Positions 8,696 to 60,791 of a DNA stretch of 64,000 bases are shown here, one piece after another. Numbering within the stretch: the stretch's first letter is position 1; every line of letters begins with the position of its first letter. The DNA comes from an uncultured Clostridia bacterium (lineage in GTDB: Bacteria > Bacillota > Clostridia > TANB77 > CAG-508). Both the position numbers and the translations under genes were made by a program. The stretch lies in contig CALXVM010000001.1 of the NCBI GenBank assembly GCA_944392105.1, positions 110,514-174,513 on the forward strand, given 5' to 3'. The notes under the pieces were generated by a model. The model was not told where the DNA came from and searched no databases. It was given only the letters and a program-made list of their open reading frames with translations.

Positions 8696-9037
8696 ATGGA
8701 CTTTATAATAGCATGTGTTTTTGTTTTATTATTTATAGTTATAGCATTAGTGCTACTTGCTGTTTTTCAGATAAGGATGGCAGGTATTAAAATAAAAGAT
8801 TTTTATGGTTTTATACAAGCAAACCAAATGTTAGATAAATTAGCAAGATTCGCGAGAAGATATGAAAATATGTCTCCGCAAGAACAAGTAATATATTTAA
8901 AGGAAGCGGAAAAAATATTTGAGGCATATGACAAAATACCAAGTGTAATATGGGAAGATCAATATAGGGAATATCAAAAAGTACTTGATGCATATAAAAA
9001 TATTAGAGTACTAAGATGGGAAGATAGTAAAAAATAA
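8696..9037 (+). CDS. Hypothetical membrane-anchored protein
   Basis: N-terminal transmembrane helix (FIIACVFVLLFIVIALVLLAVF). No recognisable domain. Confidence 0.4.
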   Translation: MDFIIACVFVLLFIVIALVLLAVFQIRMAGIKIKDFYGFIQANQMLDKLARFARRYENMSPQEQVIYLKEAEKIFEAYDKIPSVIWEDQYREYQKVLDAYKNIRVLRWEDSKK

Positions 9038-9045
9038 AAGAGGAA

Positions 9046-9067
9046 GCCCCTGCATTTCTGCAGGGGC
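9046..9067. terminator. GC-rich hairpin acting as a bidirectional terminator at the edge of the GC-rich insert
   Basis: gcccctgca-tttc-tgcaggggc. A U-rich tract follows on the minus strand. Confidence 0.55.
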
Positions 9068-9136
9068 TTTGACTTGTGGCATGCACTATACAAGAAGTAA
9101 AGCCAGGTTCATAAGTTTAGTTTGCCTACAAGAGGC

Positions 9137-14165: not shown

Positions 14166-14226
14166 AAAACGCACCACCTATCTAATAATTTTTTATAATA
14201 TAACATAAAAGAAATAAATATTCAAG

Positions 14227-14351
14227 ACGAAGATGTCACTGGGGACGAAGTTGTCACTGGGGACGGAGATTTTTGACAACCTTTTTGCTTTTTGATTTTT
14301 GATTTCTCGTAAAAGTGGTCAAAAATCTCCGTCCCCAGTGACAACTTCGTC
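14227..14351. repeat. Large palindromic element: a perfect 34-bp inverted repeat (14244-14277 and 14318-14351) around a 40-nt spacer, plus a 21-nt direct repeat. Assigned to repeat family B, whose core is GTTGTCActGGGGACGGAGatTTTTGACAAC.
   Basis: gacgaagttgtcactggggacggagatttttgac has its exact reverse complement at gtcaaaaatctccgtccccagtgacaacttcgtc. Related copies occur at 46860-46962. Confidence 0.8.
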
Positions 14352-14433
14352 TCCACGCTCCAAAAGTTTACTCTTGAAAGGGATTAAAAAATATGGTATT
14401 ATATAAAATAGTTTTAAGAAAAGAGAAATTGTT

Positions 14434-15765: not shown

Positions 15766-17199
15766 ATGGATAAAGAATATGTTAAAGAGCTTACAAATAT
15801 AGAAGAAGATTTTGCTCAGTGGTATACAGATATAGTTTTAAAAGCTGAGCTTGCAGACTATACAGATACAAAAGGATGTATAGCTATAAAACCATATGGA
15901 TATGCTATATGGGAAAATATACAAAAATATACAGATGACTTATTTAAAAAAGCAGGAGTTAAAAATGTATATTTCCCAATATTAATTCCAGAAAGTTTAC
16001 TACAAAAGGAGAAGGACCATGTAGAAGGGTTTGCACCAGAAGTAGCAATGGTAACAGAGGCTGGAGGAGAGCCACTAGAAGAAAAACTTGTAGTAAGACC
16101 AACTTCTGAAACAATGTTTTCAACACTTTACTCTAAGTGGATTAGCTCTTGGAGAGATTTACCAGTAGTTTATAATCAATGGTGTAATGTATTAAGATGG
16201 GAAAAAGAAACAAGACCATTTTTACGTTCACGTGAATTCTTGTGGCAAGAAGGTCATACAATTCATGCTACAGAAAAAGAAGCAAGAGAACGCACAATAC
16301 AAATGCTTGAAATTTATGCACAGGTTGTAGAAGATTTGTTAGCAATACCAGTATTAAAAGGAGAAAAAACACCAAGTGAAAAGTTTGCAGGGGCAGAAAA
16401 CACATATACAATAGAAACTTTGATGCATGACGGAAGAGCTCTTCAATCAGGAACTTCACATTATTTTGGTCAAAACTTCACAAAACCATTTAATATAAAA
16501 TTCCAAAACAAAGAAGGAAAAGAAGAATATGGCTATCAAACTTCATGGGGAATTAGTACAAGATTACTTGGTGGAGTTATTATGGCACATGGAGATGATA
16601 GAGGATTAAAACTACCTCCAAAAGTTGCACCAATACAGATTGTTATAGTTCCAGTTGCAGCACATAAAGAGGGCGTTGTAGAAAAAGCAACAGAACTAAA
16701 AAATGAGCTAGAAGAAAAGTTCCGTGTAGAATTAGATTTAAGAGACAATTACTCAACAGGATATAAATTTAATTATTGGGAATTAAGAGGAGTACCAGTA
16801 AGAATAGAAATAGGTCCTAGAGATATAGAAAATGAGCAATGCGTTGTAGTTAGAAGAGACACCTTAGAAAAACAAGTTGTAAAATTAGATGAACTATCTA
16901 AAAAAATAGAAGAATTATTAAAAGAAATTCAAAAGCATATGTATGACGAATGTGTAGAAAGAGTAAAAAGAAAAACAACAACTGCAACAAACATGGAAGA
17001 ATTTGAAAAAAATCTTAAAGAAAATCAAGGATATGTTAAAGCAATGTGGTGTGGAGACGAAGCTTGCGAAGACAAGATAAAAGAACTTACAGGAGCTAAA
17101 TCTAGATGCATTCCATTTGAGCAAGAGCATATATCAGATAAATGTGTATGTTGTGGAAAACCAGCAACTACAATGGTTTACTGGGGTAGACAATATTAG
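15766..17199 (+). CDS. proS: Proline--tRNA ligase (archaeal/eukaryote-like type)
   Basis: MDKEYVKELTNIEEDFAQWYTDIVLKAELADY...; class II motifs; C-terminal zinc-binding CxxC...CxxC. Confidence 0.85.
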   Translation: MDKEYVKELTNIEEDFAQWYTDIVLKAELADYTDTKGCIAIKPYGYAIWENIQKYTDDLFKKAGVKNVYFPILIPESLLQKEKDHVEGFAPEVAMVTEAGGEPLEEKLVVRPTSETMFSTLYSKWISSWRDLPVVYNQWCNVLRWEKETRPFLRSREFLWQEGHTIHATEKEARERTIQMLEIYAQVVEDLLAIPVLKGEKTPSEKFAGAENTYTIETLMHDGRALQSGTSHYFGQNFTKPFNIKFQNKEGKEEYGYQTSWGISTRLLGGVIMAHGDDRGLKLPPKVAPIQIVIVPVAAHKEGVVEKATELKNELEEKFRVELDLRDNYSTGYKFNYWELRGVPVRIEIGPRDIENEQCVVVRRDTLEKQVVKLDELSKKIEELLKEIQKHMYDECVERVKRKTTTATNMEEFEKNLKENQGYVKAMWCGDEACEDKIKELTGAKSRCIPFEQEHISDKCVCCGKPATTMVYWGRQY

Positions 17200-17200
17200 T

Positions 17201-17227
17201 GGAAATTGGGACCAGGTCCCAATTTCC
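17201..17227. repeat. 27-bp perfect palindrome ggaaattgggacc-a-ggtcccaatttcc (repeat family A). It sits exactly between the convergent stop codons of proS and the next gene.
   Basis: Seen directly in the sequence; related to copies at 31671 and 44300. Confidence 0.8.
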
Positions 17228-17790
17228 TAAAACTTTTTATTAACTGTATTTAAAATTTCTGGATAAATTTTGTAGGCATTTGTTTTCCAATTGTCTACAA
17301 TTTTTTTTGCTTCATCACGTGAACCACAGAATATTTTTAGCTCAAATATACATTTACTGTTTTCGTTTATTTTGCAAGTCACAGTATATTCAGTTTCACT
17401 CTTGGGAGTAAACTCAGCAATTACAGATTCTTGTTCTTTGGTTGCTGAAATTTCATTTTTTAAGTTAATATCAACTTTAAGTTTTATTATTCCAGGTAAC
17501 ATGTCTATAGTTAAATGTAAAGCTTCTCTACCTGAGTCTGTTATTTCATAGACATCTTTAGTATCTTTTTTATATCCTTTAATGTAATTTAATTGTATTA
17601 AGTCTAGCAAAAATTGTTGAAAGTAAAAATAGTTCATATCTTGTGTTGAAAGAATTATTCTGTATAAGTTTGCATTATCTATTGGTGCATATAGTTTGTC
17701 TAAAATGTATAGTATTAGTATTTTATTTTCTGCTAATGTTTCATTGTCTGATGAAAGTTTCACTTCGCTCACTCCTAAATATTTTTTCAT
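17227..17790 (-). CDS. Hypothetical protein
   Basis: ORF with MKKYLGVSEVKL...; no confident domain assignment. Confidence 0.4.
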   Translation of the reverse strand: MKKYLGVSEVKLSSDNETLAENKILILYILDKLYAPIDNANLYRIILSTQDMNYFYFQQFLLDLIQLNYIKGYKKDTKDVYEITDSGREALHLTIDMLPGIIKLKVDINLKNEISATKEQESVIAEFTPKSETEYTVTCKINENSKCIFELKIFCGSRDEAKKIVDNWKTNAYKIYPEILNTVNKKF

Positions 17791-17877
17791 CATTATAACA
17801 CAAATTATTAATAAATACTATCATTTTTTTATTAAAAATGTTATACTTTACTAAGATTGTTTTATTATGGGGGAAAG

Positions 17878-30970: not shown

Positions 30971-31670
30971 AAATGATACAAAAATTTATACTAGACATAG
31001 AATTAAGTTGCCAAAGATAAAAGATAGCAAAAACAAAAGAAAAATTGTAAAAATTTTAATAATACTAGTAATTGCTATAATTGTAGCAAGAACGGTACTT
31101 CTTAGTGTAACTCCAATAATTGAGGAGAGATGTAAAACAACTGCAAAATCTATTGCTACAAAAATATCTAATGAACAAGCGACAATAGTAATGTCAAATT
31201 ATACATATGAGGATTTAATAAATATAATAAAAGATGAAAATGGAAATATAAAAATGATAGGAACAAATATAATTTCTGTAAATGAAATAATATCCGACAT
31301 ACCAATAAAAATACAAGAAGAATTAGAAAAGAGTGAAAACAACAATTTTAATATAAGACTTGGGAGCTTTTTTGGAAGTAAGCTCTTTTCTGGAATGGGA
31401 CCTAACATAAATATAAAAATACAATTAGATGGTTCAGTAGAGACTGATTTAAAATCTGAATTTACTTCACAGGGAATAAACCAGACACTACATAGAATAT
31501 ATTTAGACGTTGTTTGTAAAGTAAGTATTCTTACACCTTTTCAAGTAATAAGTGAAGAAATAAAAAATCAAGTATTGCTAGTTGAAGGAATAATCGCAGG
31601 AGAAATTCCAGATAGTTATTATAATTTAGAGGGGTTAGAAAGCAGAGATGCTATAGAGATAATAAATTAA
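30963..31670 (+). CDS. yunB: Sporulation protein YunB
   Basis: TM anchor and YunB-like core (...RLGSFFGSKLFSGMGPNINIKIQLDGSVETDL...). Overlaps sipL by 8 nt. Confidence 0.65.
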   Translation: MDKNDTKIYTRHRIKLPKIKDSKNKRKIVKILIILVIAIIVARTVLLSVTPIIEERCKTTAKSIATKISNEQATIVMSNYTYEDLINIIKDENGNIKMIGTNIISVNEIISDIPIKIQEELEKSENNNFNIRLGSFFGSKLFSGMGPNINIKIQLDGSVETDLKSEFTSQGINQTLHRIYLDVVCKVSILTPFQVISEEIKNQVLLVEGIIAGEIPDSYYNLEGLESRDAIEIIN

Positions 31671-31729
31671 GAAATTGGGACCAGATCTAAATTTCCTTAT
31701 TGAGGAAATTTAGATCTGGTCCCAATTTC
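31671..31729. repeat. 59-bp palindromic element: 26-bp arms gaaattgggaccagatctaaatttcc around a 7-nt centre (repeat family A). It begins 1 nt after the yunB stop.
   Basis: A perfect inverted repeat seen directly in the sequence. Confidence 0.85.
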
Positions 31730-31794
31730 TCATTTACACAAATCTAACTTTATGGTAATATATTATAAGAAGAAATAAGAAAGGAATAATTTAA

Positions 31795-43273: not shown

Positions 43274-44299
43274 ATGAAAGAGCAAATTGAAAAGATTAGA
43301 CAGTCAGCACTAGAAGAAATTAAAAATGCAAATGATGAAAAAGTCCTAAATGATGCTAGAGTTAAATACTTAGGAAAAAAGGGAGAGCTAACTTTAATTT
43401 TAAGAGGTATGGGTGGACCTTCACCAGAAGAAAGACCTGTAATAGGAAGCTTAGTAAATGAAGTTAGAGACGAAATTGAAAATTTAATAGAAGAAAGAGA
43501 AAAAGAATTTAAAACAGCAGAAATAAAAAGAAAGCTAGAGCATGAAAAGATAGATGTAACAATGCCAGGTAAAAAGATAAACTTAGGCAGTGTTCATCCT
43601 ATAACACAAATAATAAAAGATATGGAAGAAATATTTATAGGAATGGGGTATGAAATAGCAGATGGACCAGAGGTAGAACTTGCAGAGTATAATTTTGATA
43701 AATTAAACACACCACCAGACCATCCAGCAAGAGATATACAAGATACTTTTTACGTAACAGATGACATAGTTCTAAGGTCACAAACATCACCTGTTCAAGC
43801 TAGAGTAATGGAAACACAAAAACCACCAATTAAAATAGTATGTCCTGGTGTGGTTTATCGTTCAGACAGTGTAGATGCAACACACTCACCAGTATTCCAC
43901 CAAATAGAAGGATTAGTAGTTGATAAAAATATATCAATGGGAGATTTAAAAGGAACATTAGAAATGTTTGCTAAAAAGTGCTTAGGAGAAAAAACACAAA
44001 TAAGATTTAGACCACATCATTTCCCATTTACAGAACCTAGTGCAGAAGCAGACGTATCATGCTTCGTATGTGGAGGAAAAGGATGTAGAGTGTGTAAAGG
44101 CGAAGGCTGGATAGAACTTTTAGGATGCGGTATGGTACACCCTAATGTACTTAGAAACTGCGGAATAGACCCAGAAGAATATTCAGGATTTGCATTTGGC
44201 TGTGGAATAGAAAGAATAGCTATGGCAAAATTCGGAATAGACGACATGCGTTTATTATACGAAAATGATGTACGTTTTTTAAAACAATTTGGAAATTAG
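43274..44299 (+). CDS. pheS: Phenylalanine--tRNA ligase alpha subunit
   Basis: [17 protein letters not shown]...; class II motifs; GAAGGAG site. Confidence 0.95.
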
Positions 44300-44384
44300 G
44301 AAATTGGGACCAGATCCAAATTTCCGAAAATGAGAAATTGGGACCAGATCTAAATTTCCGAAATTAAGAAATTAGTGACAGGTC
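44300..44384 (+). repeat. Tandem direct repeats (two full copies and one partial) of gaaattgggaccagatc(c/t)aaatttccgaaa (repeat family A), inserted between pheS and pheT
   Basis: Copies at 44300-44330 and 44335-44366, with a partial copy at 44368-44384. Confidence 0.85.
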
Positions 44385-46859: not shown

Positions 46860-46962
46860 TTGTCAGTTGTCAAAGAAGAGGTTGTCAGCGGGGACGGAGA
46901 AATTTGACAACCTTGTCAATGAAAACGGAGAAGCTGTCAGTGAGGACAGAGATTTTGATACA
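46860..46962 (+). repeat. Cluster of family B repeat units (gttgtcagcggggacggagaaatttgacaacc plus degenerate copies), directly after the pheT stop
   Basis: Unit at 46881-46912; degenerate unit at 46934-46962; partial units flank them. Homologous to the palindromic element at 14227-14351. Confidence 0.75.
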
Positions 46963-47010
46963 AAAAAGAAATAGCTCTTTAAATTATAAAAAGAAGCTAT
47001 TTCTTTTTTG
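46962..47010. terminator. Bidirectional rho-independent terminator
   Basis: A-run, then agaaatagct...agctatttct, then T6. Confidence 0.8.
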
Positions 47011-55289: not shown

Positions 55290-55397
55290 TTTTTTTAGCC
55301 AAATAGTTTAAAATAAACATTTGGCAATTTTTAAATAAAAGCACATATATTAATAAGGAAATATGTATGTGCAATACAAATTAATATAGTTATGAAT

Positions 55398-55445
55398 GCC
55401 TTGATAGCTCAGTTGGTAGAGCAAGGGACTGAAAATCTTTGGTGC
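55398..55445 (+). pseudogene. Degenerate 5' half of tRNA-Phe (acceptor, D and anticodon arms only), a duplicated fragment
   Basis: gccttgatagctcagttggtagagcaagggactgaaaatctttgg. It matches the intact tRNA-Phe up to the anticodon arm and lacks the T arm. Confidence 0.7.
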
Positions 55446-55453
55446 AATTTAAT

Positions 55454-55529
55454 GCCTTGATAGCTCAGTTGGTAGAGCAAAGGACTGAAAATCCTTGTGT
55501 CACTGGTTCGATTCCAGTTCAAGGCACCA
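55454..55529 (+). tRNA. tRNA-Phe (anticodon GAA)
   Basis: 76-nt cloverleaf with anticodon loop cTGAAaa and 3' CCA. Confidence 0.9.
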
Positions 55530-55666: not shown

Positions 55667-56842
55667 TTAGGCAATGGCTACTTCTTTTTTTGTACCAAAT
55701 ACATTTGCCATAACTTTTCCTGTATTATTTACACTACTTGAATCTAAATGTGCATATAAGTTAGCAGTAGTATTATAATTTGAATGACCAAGCCACGCTT
55801 GAATTTCTTTCATATTCGCACCATTTTTTAATAATATACTTGCACAAGTATGCCTTAAATCGTGAAAACGAATAATTTTTAAATTCTTTCTTTTTAGTAA
55901 TTTTAAAAATGTTTCTGTTACATAGTCTGGTCTAATTATATTTCCACAATTATCTACACAAATATATTCTAAATAATCTTTATTGTAACTATCTCCACAT
56001 AGTTCTCTGTTTTTTTCTTGTTTTTCTTTTAGTTCAATTAAAAAAGATTTTACAATAGGTTCTAAAGGTAAAGTCCTTTTACTTGATTTTGTCTTTGTTT
56101 TATCTCTTATAATTAGTTTTCCGCTTGACTGTGTAATGGTGTGATCTATTGTAATTGTATCATTTTCAAAATCAACTGCACTCCATTTCAACCCAATAAC
56201 TTCACTTCTTCTAAAACCATAAAAACAATCTATCATTACAGGAATTTCTAATTTAGTTCCAATAACTTCATTTAGTAATATTTTAACCTCATTACTTGTG
56301 TAGAATTTTGGCTTATATTCTTCAATTTTAGGTAAATCAACCTTGTCAGCAGGGTTAGATAAAATAATATCTGTTTTCATAGCATATTGTAAGGCTTTCC
56401 TTATATTTGCGTGATAATGTTTAACTGTATTTCCAGAAAGACCATCATCTAATAAATATTGGTAAAATTCTTGTATGTGCTTTGGCTTTATATTTTGTAG
56501 TGTTATTTTTGTATTTTTGAAATAATCTGTCATTCTGCCATTTATAACACCTTGATAGCCATTTAAGGTTGTTGGCTCAACACTTGCTGAAATCATTTTT
56601 AGCCATTTTTTCATATAGTCTATAAAGAGTATATCTTCATTATCAATATTATCGCTATTTATTTCTTCTTGAAACTTTTTCCTAATCTCTTCTTTTTTAG
56701 TTTCTGCCTTTTTCTTATTTCCTTTTATAGCTTTTATACCTGTTGACTTCCATTTTGTTTCCCATTTTTCATTTTTCTTATAACTTAAAACGGCTTGATA
56801 AATACCGTTTCTTATCTGTAAGCTAGCTGTTACATTTATCAT
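55667..56842 (-). CDS. int: Tyrosine-type site-specific integrase
   Basis: C-terminal catalytic motifs RFHDLRHTCASILL and LGHSNYNTTANLYAHL. GGAAGGAG site. Confidence 0.9.
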   Translation of the reverse strand: MINVTASLQIRNGIYQAVLSYKKNEKWETKWKSTGIKAIKGNKKKAETKKEEIRKKFQEEINSDNIDNEDILFIDYMKKWLKMISASVEPTTLNGYQGVINGRMTDYFKNTKITLQNIKPKHIQEFYQYLLDDGLSGNTVKHYHANIRKALQYAMKTDIILSNPADKVDLPKIEEYKPKFYTSNEVKILLNEVIGTKLEIPVMIDCFYGFRRSEVIGLKWSAVDFENDTITIDHTITQSSGKLIIRDKTKTKSSKRTLPLEPIVKSFLIELKEKQEKNRELCGDSYNKDYLEYICVDNCGNIIRPDYVTETFLKLLKRKNLKIIRFHDLRHTCASILLKNGANMKEIQAWLGHSNYNTTANLYAHLDSSSVNNTGKVMANVFGTKKEVAIA

Positions 56843-56934
56843 AAATAACTCCTTCCTATTTCTATAACAGTCTAAATTTAACTTACTATTGATATTTATG
56901 ATAATAACATAAAAGTAAATTAAAATCTAGTTTA

Positions 56935-57141
56935 TTAATTCTGTCTAGTTAAATAACTTATAATATTTCTTTTTGGTATTTTATATTCTCTACCAATTTT
57001 AAAAGCAGGAATAGTATTGTTTTTAACTAACCTATAAGCTAGTGTAACACCAATTCCTAACATTTCTTTTAATTGAACAATGTTTACTAAATCAGGGTAT
57101 GAAGTAAACATCATATCATAATTTTCTTTCAAAGTACCCAT
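56935..57141 (-). CDS. Excisionase-like HTH DNA-binding protein
   Basis: ...VQLKEMLGIGVTLAYRLVKNNTIPAFKIGREYKIPKRNI (MerR/Xis-type HTH). AAGGAGG site. Confidence 0.65.
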   Translation of the reverse strand: MGTLKENYDMMFTSYPDLVNIVQLKEMLGIGVTLAYRLVKNNTIPAFKIGREYKIPKRNIISYLTRQN

Positions 57142-57190
57142 AATTAAAACCTCCTTAAAAATAAAATAAAAAGACCTTATTTAAAATCTT

Positions 57191-57640
57191 TTAAACAAGG
57201 CATTTTTGCGATTTAAGTTTCATATTCATATTAATTTTTTTAGGAACATCATTTGTTACATTTAATTTTCTATCTATAATTAAATTTCCTTTTTTATTTC
57301 TATGATAAGCACTTAAATTCCATTTTGCAAAATCATAATCAGAAATAGTATTGTTATGAAATGATAATTCAGCATTGTCTTTGTTTAATAATGCTTTTAA
57401 TTGTTCATAAGAATTATCATCTTTTTTAGGTCTTTCATAGTTTTTATAATATTCTCTATTATATTCAGCTTTTTTCTGCATTGATTTTTTATGCCTTATT
57501 TCTTTCTCCTTAGTATATCTTGTGTCTTTTTTCACTACTTGAGATATATAGCTTTGTGAAACTCCAATAGTTTTGGCAATAATCTCTTGTTTTTGGTGTT
57601 CTTCAAAATACATTTGTAAAATTTCTTCTTTTTTACTCAT
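57191..57640 (-). CDS. HTH transcriptional regulator (sigma-70 region-4-like)
   Basis: ...QKQEIIAKTIGVSQSYISQVVKK; GGAGG site. Confidence 0.5.
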   Translation of the reverse strand: MSKKEEILQMYFEEHQKQEIIAKTIGVSQSYISQVVKKDTRYTKEKEIRHKKSMQKKAEYNREYYKNYERPKKDDNSYEQLKALLNKDNAELSFHNNTISDYDFAKWNLSAYHRNKKGNLIIDRKLNVTNDVPKKINMNMKLKSQKCLV

Positions 57641-57914
57641 TTTGACCTCCTTTCTTTACTTATATTTTTTACTTGCACTATTTTAGATATAAAAACCCTA
57701 TATAAAGTACAAGATGTAATTTATACTATAATTTGACAAATATAATTATTTATTGTAATATATTCTTATAAGAAAAGTATTAAAATTAACATAAAGTAGC
57801 CGTTAATACTTCATAATATAAGATAGATTACATTTCTATTATAGAGTAATACTTTTTGTGTGTCAATAGATTACATTAAACTTTTTGAAAAATTTTTATG
57901 AATAGGAGAATATT

Positions 57915-58883
57915 ATGAGAATGAATTTAGAATATGGCTTTAATAATGAGTCATTACCAAAATTTAAAGAATATAAAATAAAGGAAATAAACAATATTAA
58001 ATATGTTGTTCCTAAAATTCTAAAAGAAAATATGTCAAACTATTCTTTAATCGATTTTGATGACTACAAAGAAGATGATAAGCCTCTAATTGATTTTATT
58101 AATTTAGGGAAATTATCTTTAGAAGAAAAAGAAAATACTGATAGTCTAGTAATTGAATATGTAAATAAATATGGACTTTTAGGACTTATACATGATTTCC
58201 CAGTAAATAGATATTATACATTAGAAAAGGAAGTTTTACTAAAAGAATTTAATTATATAAATAATAAAGATTATTTTACAACAATAGAGCTAATTGAATA
58301 TTTTAAAATATTCTTTCCTACTACTACTGAAGAAGAAATAAAAAAACTAATAGAGAAAATAAATAAATTTATTTATGAGCATAGTATGGAAAAATTTATT
58401 TCTCCAGAAATCAATAATTTAATTTATAAAAATGAAAAATATTGTGAGCGAGTAAATATGATTATAAAATATGCACAATTTATGTATAATACTTTAAAAG
58501 AATTGAAAAAAGATAATGGAGAATATATTGATACACGAGAAATAAATAAATTAGAATCAAACCATATAAGAGTAAATTTAGAATATGATGGCTTAACAAT
58601 ACATATTAGAAGTTTAAAAGAATACATAGATGAAGATTTTAAATTATATGCAATACAAGAAAAGAAATACTTAAAACTATGTAAGCATTGTGGAAAAGCA
58701 TTTATTGCAAGTAACCCAAAAGCAATATATGATACATTTAGCTGTAAAAATCAAGAAAATGTTTACAATAGTAGAGCAAGGTTAAGTTCGAATGTTACAA
58801 AGACCAAAAACGGACTAACAGTTAAAGTAACACCAAGTGAAGAATTGTCAAATGAACTATTAAAAAATCCAGAAAAAAATTAA
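57915..58883 (+). CDS. Hypothetical protein with a C-terminal zinc ribbon
   Basis: CKHCGKAFIASNPKAIYDTFSCKNQ; no other recognisable domain. Confidence 0.4.
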   Translation: MRMNLEYGFNNESLPKFKEYKIKEINNIKYVVPKILKENMSNYSLIDFDDYKEDDKPLIDFINLGKLSLEEKENTDSLVIEYVNKYGLLGLIHDFPVNRYYTLEKEVLLKEFNYINNKDYFTTIELIEYFKIFFPTTTEEEIKKLIEKINKFIYEHSMEKFISPEINNLIYKNEKYCERVNMIIKYAQFMYNTLKELKKDNGEYIDTREINKLESNHIRVNLEYDGLTIHIRSLKEYIDEDFKLYAIQEKKYLKLCKHCGKAFIASNPKAIYDTFSCKNQENVYNSRARLSSNVTKTKNGLTVKVTPSEELSNELLKNPEKN

Positions 58884-59051
58884 ATATAATATGATAAAAA
58901 GGGTATTTGCTGTACTCTTTTTGTTTTATGCAAAAGCACTTTATATACAACCTGTTTACACTCATATGTGAGCAATAAGAATAAGTATCATTAAAAAACA
59001 AAATTTAATATAATTCAAATGGTTGTAGAACGAGCAGTAGGAGGTGTGTAT

Positions 59052-59396
59052 ATGAGTGCAATAGATAGATTATATTCTAGTACCAATAAAACTATAAAGA
59101 AATCAATTAATATTGATGATAGTTTATATAAAAGGTTAATGAGATTTACAAAAAAGAATTATGACGCAACATTTAGTGAGGTTATAAATGTGTGCATAGA
59201 AGAATATATTTATAAAAATCAACCATACTTTTATGAAAAGCCTGAAAATGAAACAGTTACATATAGGAGTATTATGATCAGAAAGGAAAATTTAAGCAAC
59301 TTGCAAAAATTTCACAAAAAAACTGGTATTTCTGTAACAAGATTATTAAATTGTGCTGTTAAAGAATTTTTAGATAACTATGATAATAAAAGATAA
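59052..59396 (+). CDS. Hypothetical 114-aa protein, paralog A (MSAIDRLY...)
   Basis: AGGAGGTG site. About 55% identical to the protein at 60276-60614. Confidence 0.5.
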   Translation: MSAIDRLYSSTNKTIKKSINIDDSLYKRLMRFTKKNYDATFSEVINVCIEEYIYKNQPYFYEKPENETVTYRSIMIRKENLSNLQKFHKKTGISVTRLLNCAVKEFLDNYDNKR

Positions 59397-59472
59397 GTTA
59401 ATATAAAATATCAACTTACCTTATATTATAAAACACAATGTAGTTTATTATATAATGAGTTTATATAATAAG

Positions 59473-60112
59473 CTATTTTTTATTTAAGGCAATATAATAT
59501 GCTAAACTGCTTTGATAAGATGAAAGTTCAAAATCTATTTTTTGATATTCATAAAATTTTTTCCTTTCTTCTGCTGAAAAATTAGATGTAAGTTCTAGTG
59601 TTAATTTATTAAACTTGCGATTAAGTTCAACATAATCTTTTATATCAAACAAATCATTTATATGTACTTCTATACTATCATCTACCTTATCCATATTGCT
59701 TTTGTTAAACCAATTCAAGTCAATTTTAATATTTTTTATAGATTCTAGTTCATAAACTCCGTTTAGTTTTAAAGAAAATTGCAAGACCATCTAATTTATT
59801 ATCAAAAAATAACGGAAAAATCATTTGTGAAAAATATTCTACTTCATCATTTTCTACAATTTTTTTGAAGTTATCATTTAAAAGTAAATATAAATCTTCT
59901 GAAAACTCTTTATTTTTCCACTCTTTTATTAAATTGAGCATATCTGTACTTAAAGGCTTATGCCAGTAATTATCATAGTCCAAAGTAATATCATTTTTTT
60001 CATCTACTATTCCATATTGAATTGTTTTTAAATCAGCAATTAGAATATTAGATTTTACATTAGAGCCGTTAAAAGATTTTAATAAATCTACACACTTTTC
60101 TGAAATTTGCAT
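59473..60112 (-). pseudogene. Hypothetical protein of about 212 aa, split by a frameshift in the T/A tract near 59770-59785
   Basis: Two overlapping ORFs (59750-60112 and 59473-59790) read continuously after a 1-nt shift. AAAGGAGG site precedes the start at 60112. Confidence 0.45.
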
Positions 60113-60275: not shown

Positions 60276-60614
60276 ATGAGTGCAATAGATAGGTTATATA
60301 AAAAATCAAACTATACAATTCAAAAAAGTATAAATTTAGAAGATGGATTATATACGAGATTAAAAGAAATAGTAGATAAAGACTATGACGCAACAATTAG
60401 CGATATGATAAATGTTTGTATTGAAGATTTACTATCTGCTGGAAATGTAAAATATTATGCTAAGCCAGAAGATGAAATAACAATTTATAGGAGTGTAATG
60501 ATTAGAAAAGAAAATGTAGAAGCATTGAACAAAATAACACAAGAAACGGGAATTTCCCTAACAAGATTAGTAAATATAGCAATGAAAGAATTTTTAGATA
60601 AATATAAAAAATAA
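60276..60614 (+). CDS. Hypothetical 112-aa protein, paralog B (MSAIDRLY...)
   Basis: GGAGGTG site. Paralog of the protein at 59052-59396. Confidence 0.5.
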   Translation: MSAIDRLYKKSNYTIQKSINLEDGLYTRLKEIVDKDYDATISDMINVCIEDLLSAGNVKYYAKPEDEITIYRSVMIRKENVEALNKITQETGISLTRLVNIAMKEFLDKYKK

Positions 60615-60791
60615 AATGTAGAAGATTATCATAAGAATTGATAATCTTTTATTTTTATGATATTATTCTTTTAGAATAATAATAAGTTGTTGCTGAGATT
60701 GTGTTTCTAAATATTGTAAAAATGCAAATAGAAAATACATAAACTGAAAGATTATAGACATTTAAATTTATTGTGTGTATTACAAAAAATG

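Follow-up and report, generated by a model that had tools for sequence, protein, structure and literature searches.

Canonical repetitive extragenic palindromic (REP) elements carry a GTAG tag and have been reported from Proteobacteria, Cyanobacteria, Chloroflexi and the Planctomycetes-Verrucomicrobia-Chlamydiae group (PMC3733652). In the TIRtron described by Di Nocera et al. (2013), TIRYT genes, which resemble those of REP-associated tyrosine transposases (RAYTs), have long inverted repeats on either side. The motif GGGGWSAS is often common to these terminal inverted repeats, and some of them belong to families of moderate abundance whose members occur singly, as dimers or in clusters (PMC3733652). 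Quentin et al. (2018) treated TIRYTs as subclass 2.1, i.e., RAYT group 1, with C-terminal helix-turn-helix (HTH) domains, and did not find REP-like structures beside the genes of this subclass (PMC6006769). Group 1 occurs in Clostridia, and its flanking 16-mers are found about 12 times per replicon (Bertels et al., 2017; PMC5581495). Here we examine a 27-bp palindrome at the 3' end of proS in a 64,000-nucleotide stretch of DNA from an uncultured Clostridia bacterium (contig CALXVM010000001.1, positions 110,514 to 174,513; the window, in what follows). The palindrome is very probably a REP-like element of a dispersed chromosomal family, which we call family A, paired with a RAYT-type HUH/Y1 transposase that has a helical C-terminal extension and is of the TIRYT, RAYT group 1 or subclass 2.1 type.

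The palindrome and its two neighbours are arranged as follows.

15766 to 17199, plus strand: proS, a class II ProRS (Pfam PF00587, PF03129, PF09180).
17201 to 17227, no strand assigned: P-type unit (see below), a perfect 13+1+13 palindrome GGAAATTGGGACC-A-GGTCCCAATTTCC of two head-to-head half-sites GGAAATTGGGAC.
17227 to 17793, minus strand: DUF4364 gene, convergent with proS.

An earlier note on this DNA had placed a perfect 27-bp palindrome between the convergent stop codons of proS and the next gene, and this description is accurate. The palindrome begins after a 1-nt gap behind the proS TAG (17197-17199), and the DUF4364 stop (CTA on the plus strand at 17227-17229, TAG on the minus strand) shares one base with its final C. 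It was kept in 10 of 10 strain contigs. In strain L009 (11435-11540, the orthologue of window 17200-17232) the element is a full composite, in which the palindrome is followed by TAAACC and GGGAAAAAGGGACAGATC, i.e., a spacer and a terminal module, and 56 nt more are retained. Relative to L009, 75 nt including the terminal half-module are absent from the window and the other nine strains, and the gap ends at the element. Owing to this loss, DUF4364 now ends on the minus strand in TAG joined directly to GAAATTGGGACC, and its protein is two residues longer in L009 (…KKFEE) than in the others (…KKF). Folded as single-stranded DNA, the palindrome forms a 12-bp stem with a 3-nt loop (-12.3 kcal/mol, z = -5.4), to which GGGACC/GGTCCC belong. 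A 7-bp stem with GGGACC in the loop, as earlier proposed for every unit, therefore describes the copies at yunB and pheS and not the one at proS.

These related copies, 3' of yunB (31671-31729) and between pheS and pheT (44300-44384), are present as the earlier note had reported.

31671 to 31729, no strand assigned: REPIN-like (REP doublet forming a hairpin) A-type inverted dimer, with a 26-nt unit, a 7-nt unpaired centre and an opposite 26-nt unit.
44291 to 44299, plus strand: half-site variant GGAAATTAG, which provides the last two codons of pheS (Gly-Asn) and its TAG stop.
44300 to 44325, plus strand: A-type unit with 1 mismatch, first of the pheS-pheT array.
44334 to 44359, plus strand: exact A-type unit, second of the array, 34 nt start to start.
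44368 to 44384, plus strand: degenerate terminal half-module GAAATTAGTGACAGGTC, the end of the array, whose counterparts at many loci are the terminal modules GAAAtttGGGgCAGATC.

The yunB dimer consists of two exact 26-mers GAAATTGGGACCAGATCTAAATTTCC inverted relative to each other, begins directly 3' of the yunB TAA (31668-31670) and forms a 28-bp hairpin as single-stranded DNA (-31.2 kcal/mol, z = -12.5). The pheS-pheT array, with two direct units and a degenerate half-unit, starts on the last base of the pheS TAG, and the intergenic arrays of two strains found via PheT were identical to it. The 12-mer core occurs 6 times in the window (0.16 expected) and the 26-mer with at most 3 mismatches 5 times (0.00 expected); no further family A loci were found in the window besides those at proS, yunB and pheS.

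Outside the window, a pattern scan of metagenome contigs identified 32 stretches that carry the repeat pattern. Assembly ERZ1643246, by itself, has at least 16 separate loci, and contigs from it (L035, L042) are 98-99% identical to the window, which indicates the same species. Contigs of assembly ERZ1643251, 84-90% identical to the window and thus from a sister species, also carry the pattern. The motif is therefore not unique to the three loci from which a family had been proposed. The same pattern, GAAATTGGGACCAGNTCNNAATTTC, gave 0 matches in the reference genome collection, from which the source species is absent or in which it is masked. Viral contigs also gave 0 matches, so that a phage origin is unsupported, and Rfam at gathering thresholds returned only three tRNAs in the window and no RNA family matching the repeats. 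A CRISPR array was rejected since the spacers are only 6-8 nt long and alike, not unique sequences of at least 26 nt.

The anatomy of the family was drawn from a reading of all loci and from the consensus of 55 distinct units with their flanks. Both types of unit are built from the half-site GGAAATTGGGAC. In an A-type unit, which has a 7-bp stem, a half-site is followed by AGATCT and AAATTTCC, and a P-type unit consists of two half-sites placed head-to-head, GGAAATTGGGrcCAGGTCCCAATTTCC, a 27-bp palindrome. Units are followed by a 6-8-nt spacer and then by a terminal half-module (GAAAtttGGGgCAGATC or GGGAAAAAAGGGACAGATC). They occur singly, as inverted dimers and as direct tandem arrays with a 34-nt period; inverted doublets are present at window 31671-31729 and at about nine further loci. 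At most loci the A-type 26-mer is exact or one mismatch away, the mismatch spectrum having its peak at 0-1. The A-type, with an AGATCT core, includes the yunB and pheS copies, and the P-type, with the full palindrome, includes the proS copy. Both subfamilies were found in the same-species assembly and only the A-type in the sister assembly, among sampled loci for which the search pattern biased the sample. The sequence would permit the proS palindrome to be an A-type inverted dimer with a central deletion, but the many P-type copies and a transposase allele flanked by P-type repeats favour a separate subfamily.

The window also contains a second repeat family, family B, at 14226-14355 and 46862-46966, with the structure AGGTTGTCA[..GGGGACGGAGA....]TGACAACCT. 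It shares the design of family A, i.e., 7-nt arms and a loop containing GGGGAC. One of the two sites is an inverted pair and the other lies 3' of the pheT stop, and copies are also present in same-species contigs L037, L048 and L050. Family B may be REP-like as well and belong with family A to one superfamily; a cognate gene for it was not found.

Family A copies are placed in a characteristic way relative to genes. Among 33 clusters with both neighbours called, 27 lie between co-directional, 6 between convergent and none between divergent genes. After orthologous loci had been merged, 15 of 25 non-redundant loci (about 60%) have their start between 9 nt within the 3' end of the gene and 4 nt beyond the stop codon. 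The p value is 6e-14 for an expectation of 5% and 2e-4 for one of 25%. In the sequences as read, units close to a stop codon have their GAAATTGGG end toward it, and the three bases before the unit have the consensus T-A-R (T 60%, A 58%, G/A 97%). Window pheS and a GH15 gene that adjoins the transposase gene described below end inside the half-site variant GGA AAT TAG (Gly-Asn-stop), and reading of the printed sequences shows that the same ending closes genes at L036 and L048. A second recurrent site is directly upstream of a ribosome-binding site (…CCCAATTTCC AAGGAGG…ATG), for example that of radA. The family is extragenic apart from one copy, a P-type palindrome (L050, 12299-12325) that lies in frame inside the open reading frame of a 627-aa PMT_2-family glycosyltransferase and encodes WKLGPGPNF. 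Asymmetric units are almost always on the G-rich strand, an orientation that is confounded with gene direction.

A candidate enzyme was found on a short contig (L029) that has the repeats at both ends and a 265-aa open reading frame between them. The protein matches Pfam Y1_Tnp (6e-14), and its best NCBIfam model is REP_Tyr_transpos with 70.8 bits, against 18.7 bits for IS200. We found 377 relatives. Many of them are on contigs with a length of about 1 kb, which would be expected when a gene has repeats on both sides. The REP_Tyr_transpos model matches each of the 26 relatives that were aligned, and their alignment shows invariant H59 and H61 (HxH) and Y118, N122 and P123 (Y-x3-NP), as well as invariant Q247, R250 and G253 in the C-terminal helical region. 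The family profile had a single match among PDB sequences, E. coli TnpA-REP (4ER8). The same structure was the top match (E = 5.8e-8, template modelling score 0.75 normalised to target) of an AlphaFold2 model of P0001, a protein 97% identical to that of L029 (mean predicted local distance difference test score 89), and the IS608 and ISDra2 transposases ranked behind it at about 1e-4. The model is all-helical at residues 139 to 264, and weak HTH matches at E around 0.02 were obtained for HTH_23 in 5 and HTH_28 in 3 of the 26 members. Sequence and predicted structure thus both point to the 265-aa HUH/Y1 protein being a RAYT-like enzyme.

The P0001 gene sits between the GH15 gene and radA, on a contig of the same sample and of similar coverage as the contig that encodes a ProS identical to that of the window. 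Its upstream flank consists of a half-site, a unit in plus orientation, a spacer, a unit in minus orientation, a spacer and GAAAAGAGGGGCAGATC directly before the gene, and its downstream flank of GATCGGTTTCAAATTTCC, a spacer, a unit in minus orientation and the radA ribosome-binding site. These flanks, with their terminal modules facing the gene, are the arrangement of a REPtron or TIRtron. Repeats on both sides with terminal modules toward the gene were also found in L029, L053-L058 and L139-L142. The half-modules facing the RAYT gene end in …CAGATC, and the composite flanks of unit, spacer and terminal module are about 50 nt long and in inverted orientation. No RAYT-like protein is encoded among the window proteins.

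Repeats and enzyme vary together. In a profile scan, the nearest RAYT relatives in reference genomes were 40-57% identical (best 57%) and belonged to uncultured Clostridia metagenome-assembled genomes; GH15 lies upstream of the relative in L059 and L062, and radA downstream in L060 and L061. The flanking repeats in L059, L062 and L063 have the same design as family A and different stems.

L059 repeat: GGTAATT[GGGGACGTTTCCT]AATTACC
L063 repeat: TCCCATT[GGGGACGTTTCCT]AATGGGA
L062 repeat: GCAAGTT[GGGGACAGGCACC]AACTTGC

Across RAYT lineages the 7-bp stems co-vary, TTGGG..C is invariant and GGG(G)AC is conserved. In five aligned units, picked by hand and giving a count that is illustrative only, 35 of 35 cells pair (100%), 5 of the 7 stem pairs are changed on both sides and TTGGG after the 5' arm is invariant. 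A parallel change is also seen within the species. Two RAYT alleles, P0001 and P0003, occupy one GH15-radA locus (L053 10001-10798 and L139 4001-4828) with 65% protein and 76% DNA identity, in flanks that are 98-99% identical. The P0001 allele is flanked by A-type repeats, and the P0003 allele by P-type repeats.

The present family fits the TIRtron kind, which is its closest description. Both have a RAYT-like Y1 gene with a C-terminal extension, which here is helical and may be of the HTH type, and long inverted repeats that are not GTAG REPs; the repeats are moderately abundant, as singles, dimers and clusters, and group 1 RAYTs are known from Clostridia. The inner repeat ends are near GGGGWSAS (GGGGACAG, GGGACAGATC, GGGGCAGATC), with GGGGACAG in several copies and in L062 and GGGGACAC in L059. 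On the other hand, the motifs of the RAYT flanks (GGGGCAGA, GGGACAGA) do not fit GGGGWSAS exactly, and GGGGCAGA, GGGGATAG and GGGACAGG in these flanks are near-matches only. The repeats of family A are clear hairpins with co-varying stems, whereas Quentin et al. saw nothing REP-like beside subclass 2.1 genes; the likeness to this subclass is one of described features and not of the authors' own profiles. Tandem 34-nt arrays, stop-codon placement and pairing of allele and repeat subfamily, as seen here, do not appear in the TIRtron papers. These three features, together with a hairpin whose stem co-varies, are what is new compared with the TIRtron literature. A literature search for the repeat sequence returned unrelated primer matches only, and no paper describing this repeat was found among those searched.

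The REPs, bacterial interspersed mosaic elements and REPINs of E. coli and Pseudomonas are likewise 20-40-nt extragenic hairpins, located mostly after genes and between co-directional or convergent neighbours. They also form REPIN doublets and have a flanked RAYT with partly syntenic relatives, which suggests vertical inheritance, and 4ER8 is the best structural match. They differ in their GTAG/GTGG tag, in place of which family A conserves GGG(G)AC, and in copy number, which here is in the tens and not in the hundreds, as far as sampled. The present protein is about 100 aa longer than their RAYTs owing to the C-terminal extension, and its host belongs to the Firmicutes (Clostridia). With the insertion sequence (IS) group IS200/IS605 and its palindrome-associated transposable elements (PATEs), family A shares the HUH/Y1 chemistry and recognition of single-stranded hairpins; a short conserved 5' sequence is plausible. 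As would be expected of this chemistry, no flanking duplications were seen in the junctions that were read, though no search aimed at them was made. In contrast to IS200/IS605, the IS200 model scores low, there is no tnpB and the gene is apparently fixed at one locus, not multi-copy. Among Gram-positive repeats, BOX is a further small element comparable to RUP, Bcr1 and EFAR. All four differ from family A in being 70-300-bp elements that are modular or resemble miniature inverted-repeat transposable elements (MITEs) and that either go with a DDE-type IS or lack a known enzyme; no likeness in sequence was seen, though no search aimed at it was made. RUP, Bcr1 and EFAR resemble it as short structured non-coding repeats near genes in low-GC Firmicutes (PMC3733652).

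Differences among strains and from the sister species are indirect signs of activity, as are the near-identical A-type copies and the in-frame P-type copy. In L017 (3709-3767, the orthologue of window 31671-31729) the dimer keeps its arms but has its central 7 nt in the opposite orientation (TCAATAA for TTATTGA), so either the whole yunB element or its loop flipped in one strain. In L013, L015, L016 and L018 (3709-4102, the orthologue of 31671-31767) the yunB dimer and 37 nt are replaced by about 365 nt of unrelated DNA. In the window at 9033-9075 a stop codon is directly followed by a canonical terminator hairpin, and in the sister species (L025, 1400-2865) a three-unit repeat array and a 1.4-kb cysteine-desulfurase-like gene lie between the same stop and terminator. 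The borders of the yunB replacement, of the L025 array and of the 75-nt deletion at proS fall on element borders. A 145-bp length difference 3' of the DnaJ gene had no relation to the repeats.

The DNA that replaces the yunB dimer encodes a 36-aa hydrophobic peptide, MLEILEFLFIGLMISITINLALLCIIYIKWVNSQIK, between two AATGTGTAGTT(G/A)CC repeats. The segment looks like a small membrane-toxin cassette. The peptide has no Pfam match.

Several observations weigh against a mobile REP-like family served by this enzyme. The score of 70.8 bits falls short of the curated REP_Tyr_transpos cut-off of 80, and the RAYT gene lies outside the window, tied to its genome by sample co-occurrence, similar coverage and shared repeats. 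The copy number rests on one metagenome assembly and a strict pattern, with the source species absent from the reference genomes, and the covariation count on hand-picked units. The consensus of 55 units lacks a GTAG/GTGG tag at the hairpin foot and conserves GGGAC just inside the 5' arm. The G-rich-strand orientation cannot separate a replication-linked mechanism from selection. Neither a clean pair of filled and empty sites nor a transposition event was found. The proS copy is present in all 10 strains, none of the same-species contigs examined differs in its pheS array, and the three informative strain differences are replacements or deletions that also involve other DNA.

Of the alternatives, an improbable one is that the repeats are binding sites for a host protein, for example a domesticated RAYT-like regulator or a nucleoid or replication factor, kept by selection and gene conversion. 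The partial GH15 and/or radA synteny of relatives at 40-57% identity looks like vertical inheritance, RAYTs have been regarded as housekeeping-like (PMC5581495), copies are stable across strains at orthologous loci, and the helical C-terminal extension is conserved, with its weak HTH_23 and HTH_28 matches. However, near-identical copies at many unrelated loci (mismatch peak 0-1) and the invariant catalytic HxH and Tyr residues argue against such a role. The varying arrangements, the in-frame copy in a gene and the dimer inverted in one strain are a better fit to cutting and rejoining.

It is very unlikely that the repeats are MITEs or PATEs of an ordinary multi-copy IS, or were spread by another transposase, with the RAYT adjacent by coincidence. 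Their inverted termini and clusters would suit this explanation, and no transposition assay ties them to the RAYT. Yet RAYT flanks carry repeats in four lineages, namely those of the A-type allele, of the P-type allele, of L059 and of L062, and the stem sequence differs from one to the next. No other transposase gene was seen beside the copies examined, in loci that were not screened systematically, and the repeats have no match in viral contigs. A DDE-type MITE fits poorly, the only associated gene being that of a Y1 transposase. Of the earlier wording, a mobile terminator-like or MITE/REP-like element, the REP-like part thus holds, and MITE, if taken to mean a derivative of a DDE transposon, is a poor fit.

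The terminator-like part is not supported, in view of the missing T-tract, the array in an operon and the copies before ribosome-binding sites. A terminator consensus scan found no match at proS or pheS-pheT, whose copies lack a T-tract, and the formal match of the yunB dimer has a 'T-tail' that is part of the hairpin arm. Like a Rho-independent terminator, the repeat is a stable stem-loop directly after a gene; unlike one, it has no U-tract and occurs in an operon and in 5' leaders. Strong termination is unlikely because of the array inside the pheS-pheT operon and the copies in 5' leaders, and the family A repeat is not a canonical terminator. There is hence hardly any chance that the palindrome arose in place as a bidirectional intrinsic terminator or 3'-end stabilising hairpin for proS and its convergent neighbour, with similar copies convergent or due to chance: its exact site between two convergent stops and its stable RNA hairpin (about -18.6 kcal/mol on either strand) would suit this, but the sequence recurs at dozens of unrelated loci, repeats flank a transposase gene and a real terminator of other sequence is present 3' of another gene at 9036-9075.

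For a REP-like family paired with a RAYT, we propose a mechanism modelled on E. coli TnpA-REP and IS608 TnpA. The hairpin and GGG(G)AC on single-stranded DNA would serve as the recognition site of the transposase, and cutting and rejoining at the element borders would allow copies to be spread, inverted, deleted and rearranged. The enzyme would thus move the repeats via single-stranded hairpins and have a target preference. Copies at stop codons may persist through a preference for T-W-R immediately 5' of the element, through insertion being harmless there, or both. A more specific proposal is a Firmicutes REPIN-RAYT-type system run by the HTH-bearing RAYT class, to which REP-like hairpins are at present not ascribed, with hairpins set almost to the nucleotide at stop codons, some of them providing the final codons and the stop, and two divergent alleles at the same locus that each have their own repeat subfamily; we regard this as tentative and rather doubtful.

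Effects on RNA would be secondary. The RNA hairpins are stable (-46.9 kcal/mol was also obtained), which makes 3'-end protection plausible, and a hairpin directly after the stop codon probably protects the mRNA 3' end. It may also affect translation termination. In E. coli, ribosome stalling and trans-translation have reportedly been traced to REPs that lie no more than about 15 nt from a stop codon (Liang, Rudd and Deutscher, 2015). REPs are cited as implicated in the regulation of translation (PMC6006769).

Other features of the window were recorded on the way. A 47-nt segment at 55395-55441 is 96% identical to the 5' part of tRNA-Phe (55454-55529) and was called by neither Rfam nor ARAGORN; it is probably a tRNA fragment left by partial duplication. 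The part from 56001 to 60000 is the only one in the window with negative GC skew and has the lowest G+C content (23.5%). A 161-nt direct repeat is present at 59231-59391 and 60455-60615 with 71% identity.

REP/REPIN-RAYT systems have been studied almost wholly in Proteobacteria, and group 1 or subclass 2.1 is the largest RAYT class. The present case supplies a concrete repeat family for an enzyme that is probably of this kind in a gut Clostridia species. For annotation, the repeats explain odd two-codon gene endings (…Gly-Asn-stop) and the strain-specific rearrangements beside them. Two alleles with two repeat subfamilies form a natural experiment on how RAYT and hairpin specify each other, and this specificity is testable. 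The placement at stop codons offers a way to ask about hairpin effects on termination or mRNA decay in Gram-positive bacteria and, if the proposal of a Firmicutes REPIN-RAYT-type system is true, would raise the question of whether insertion targets stop codons.

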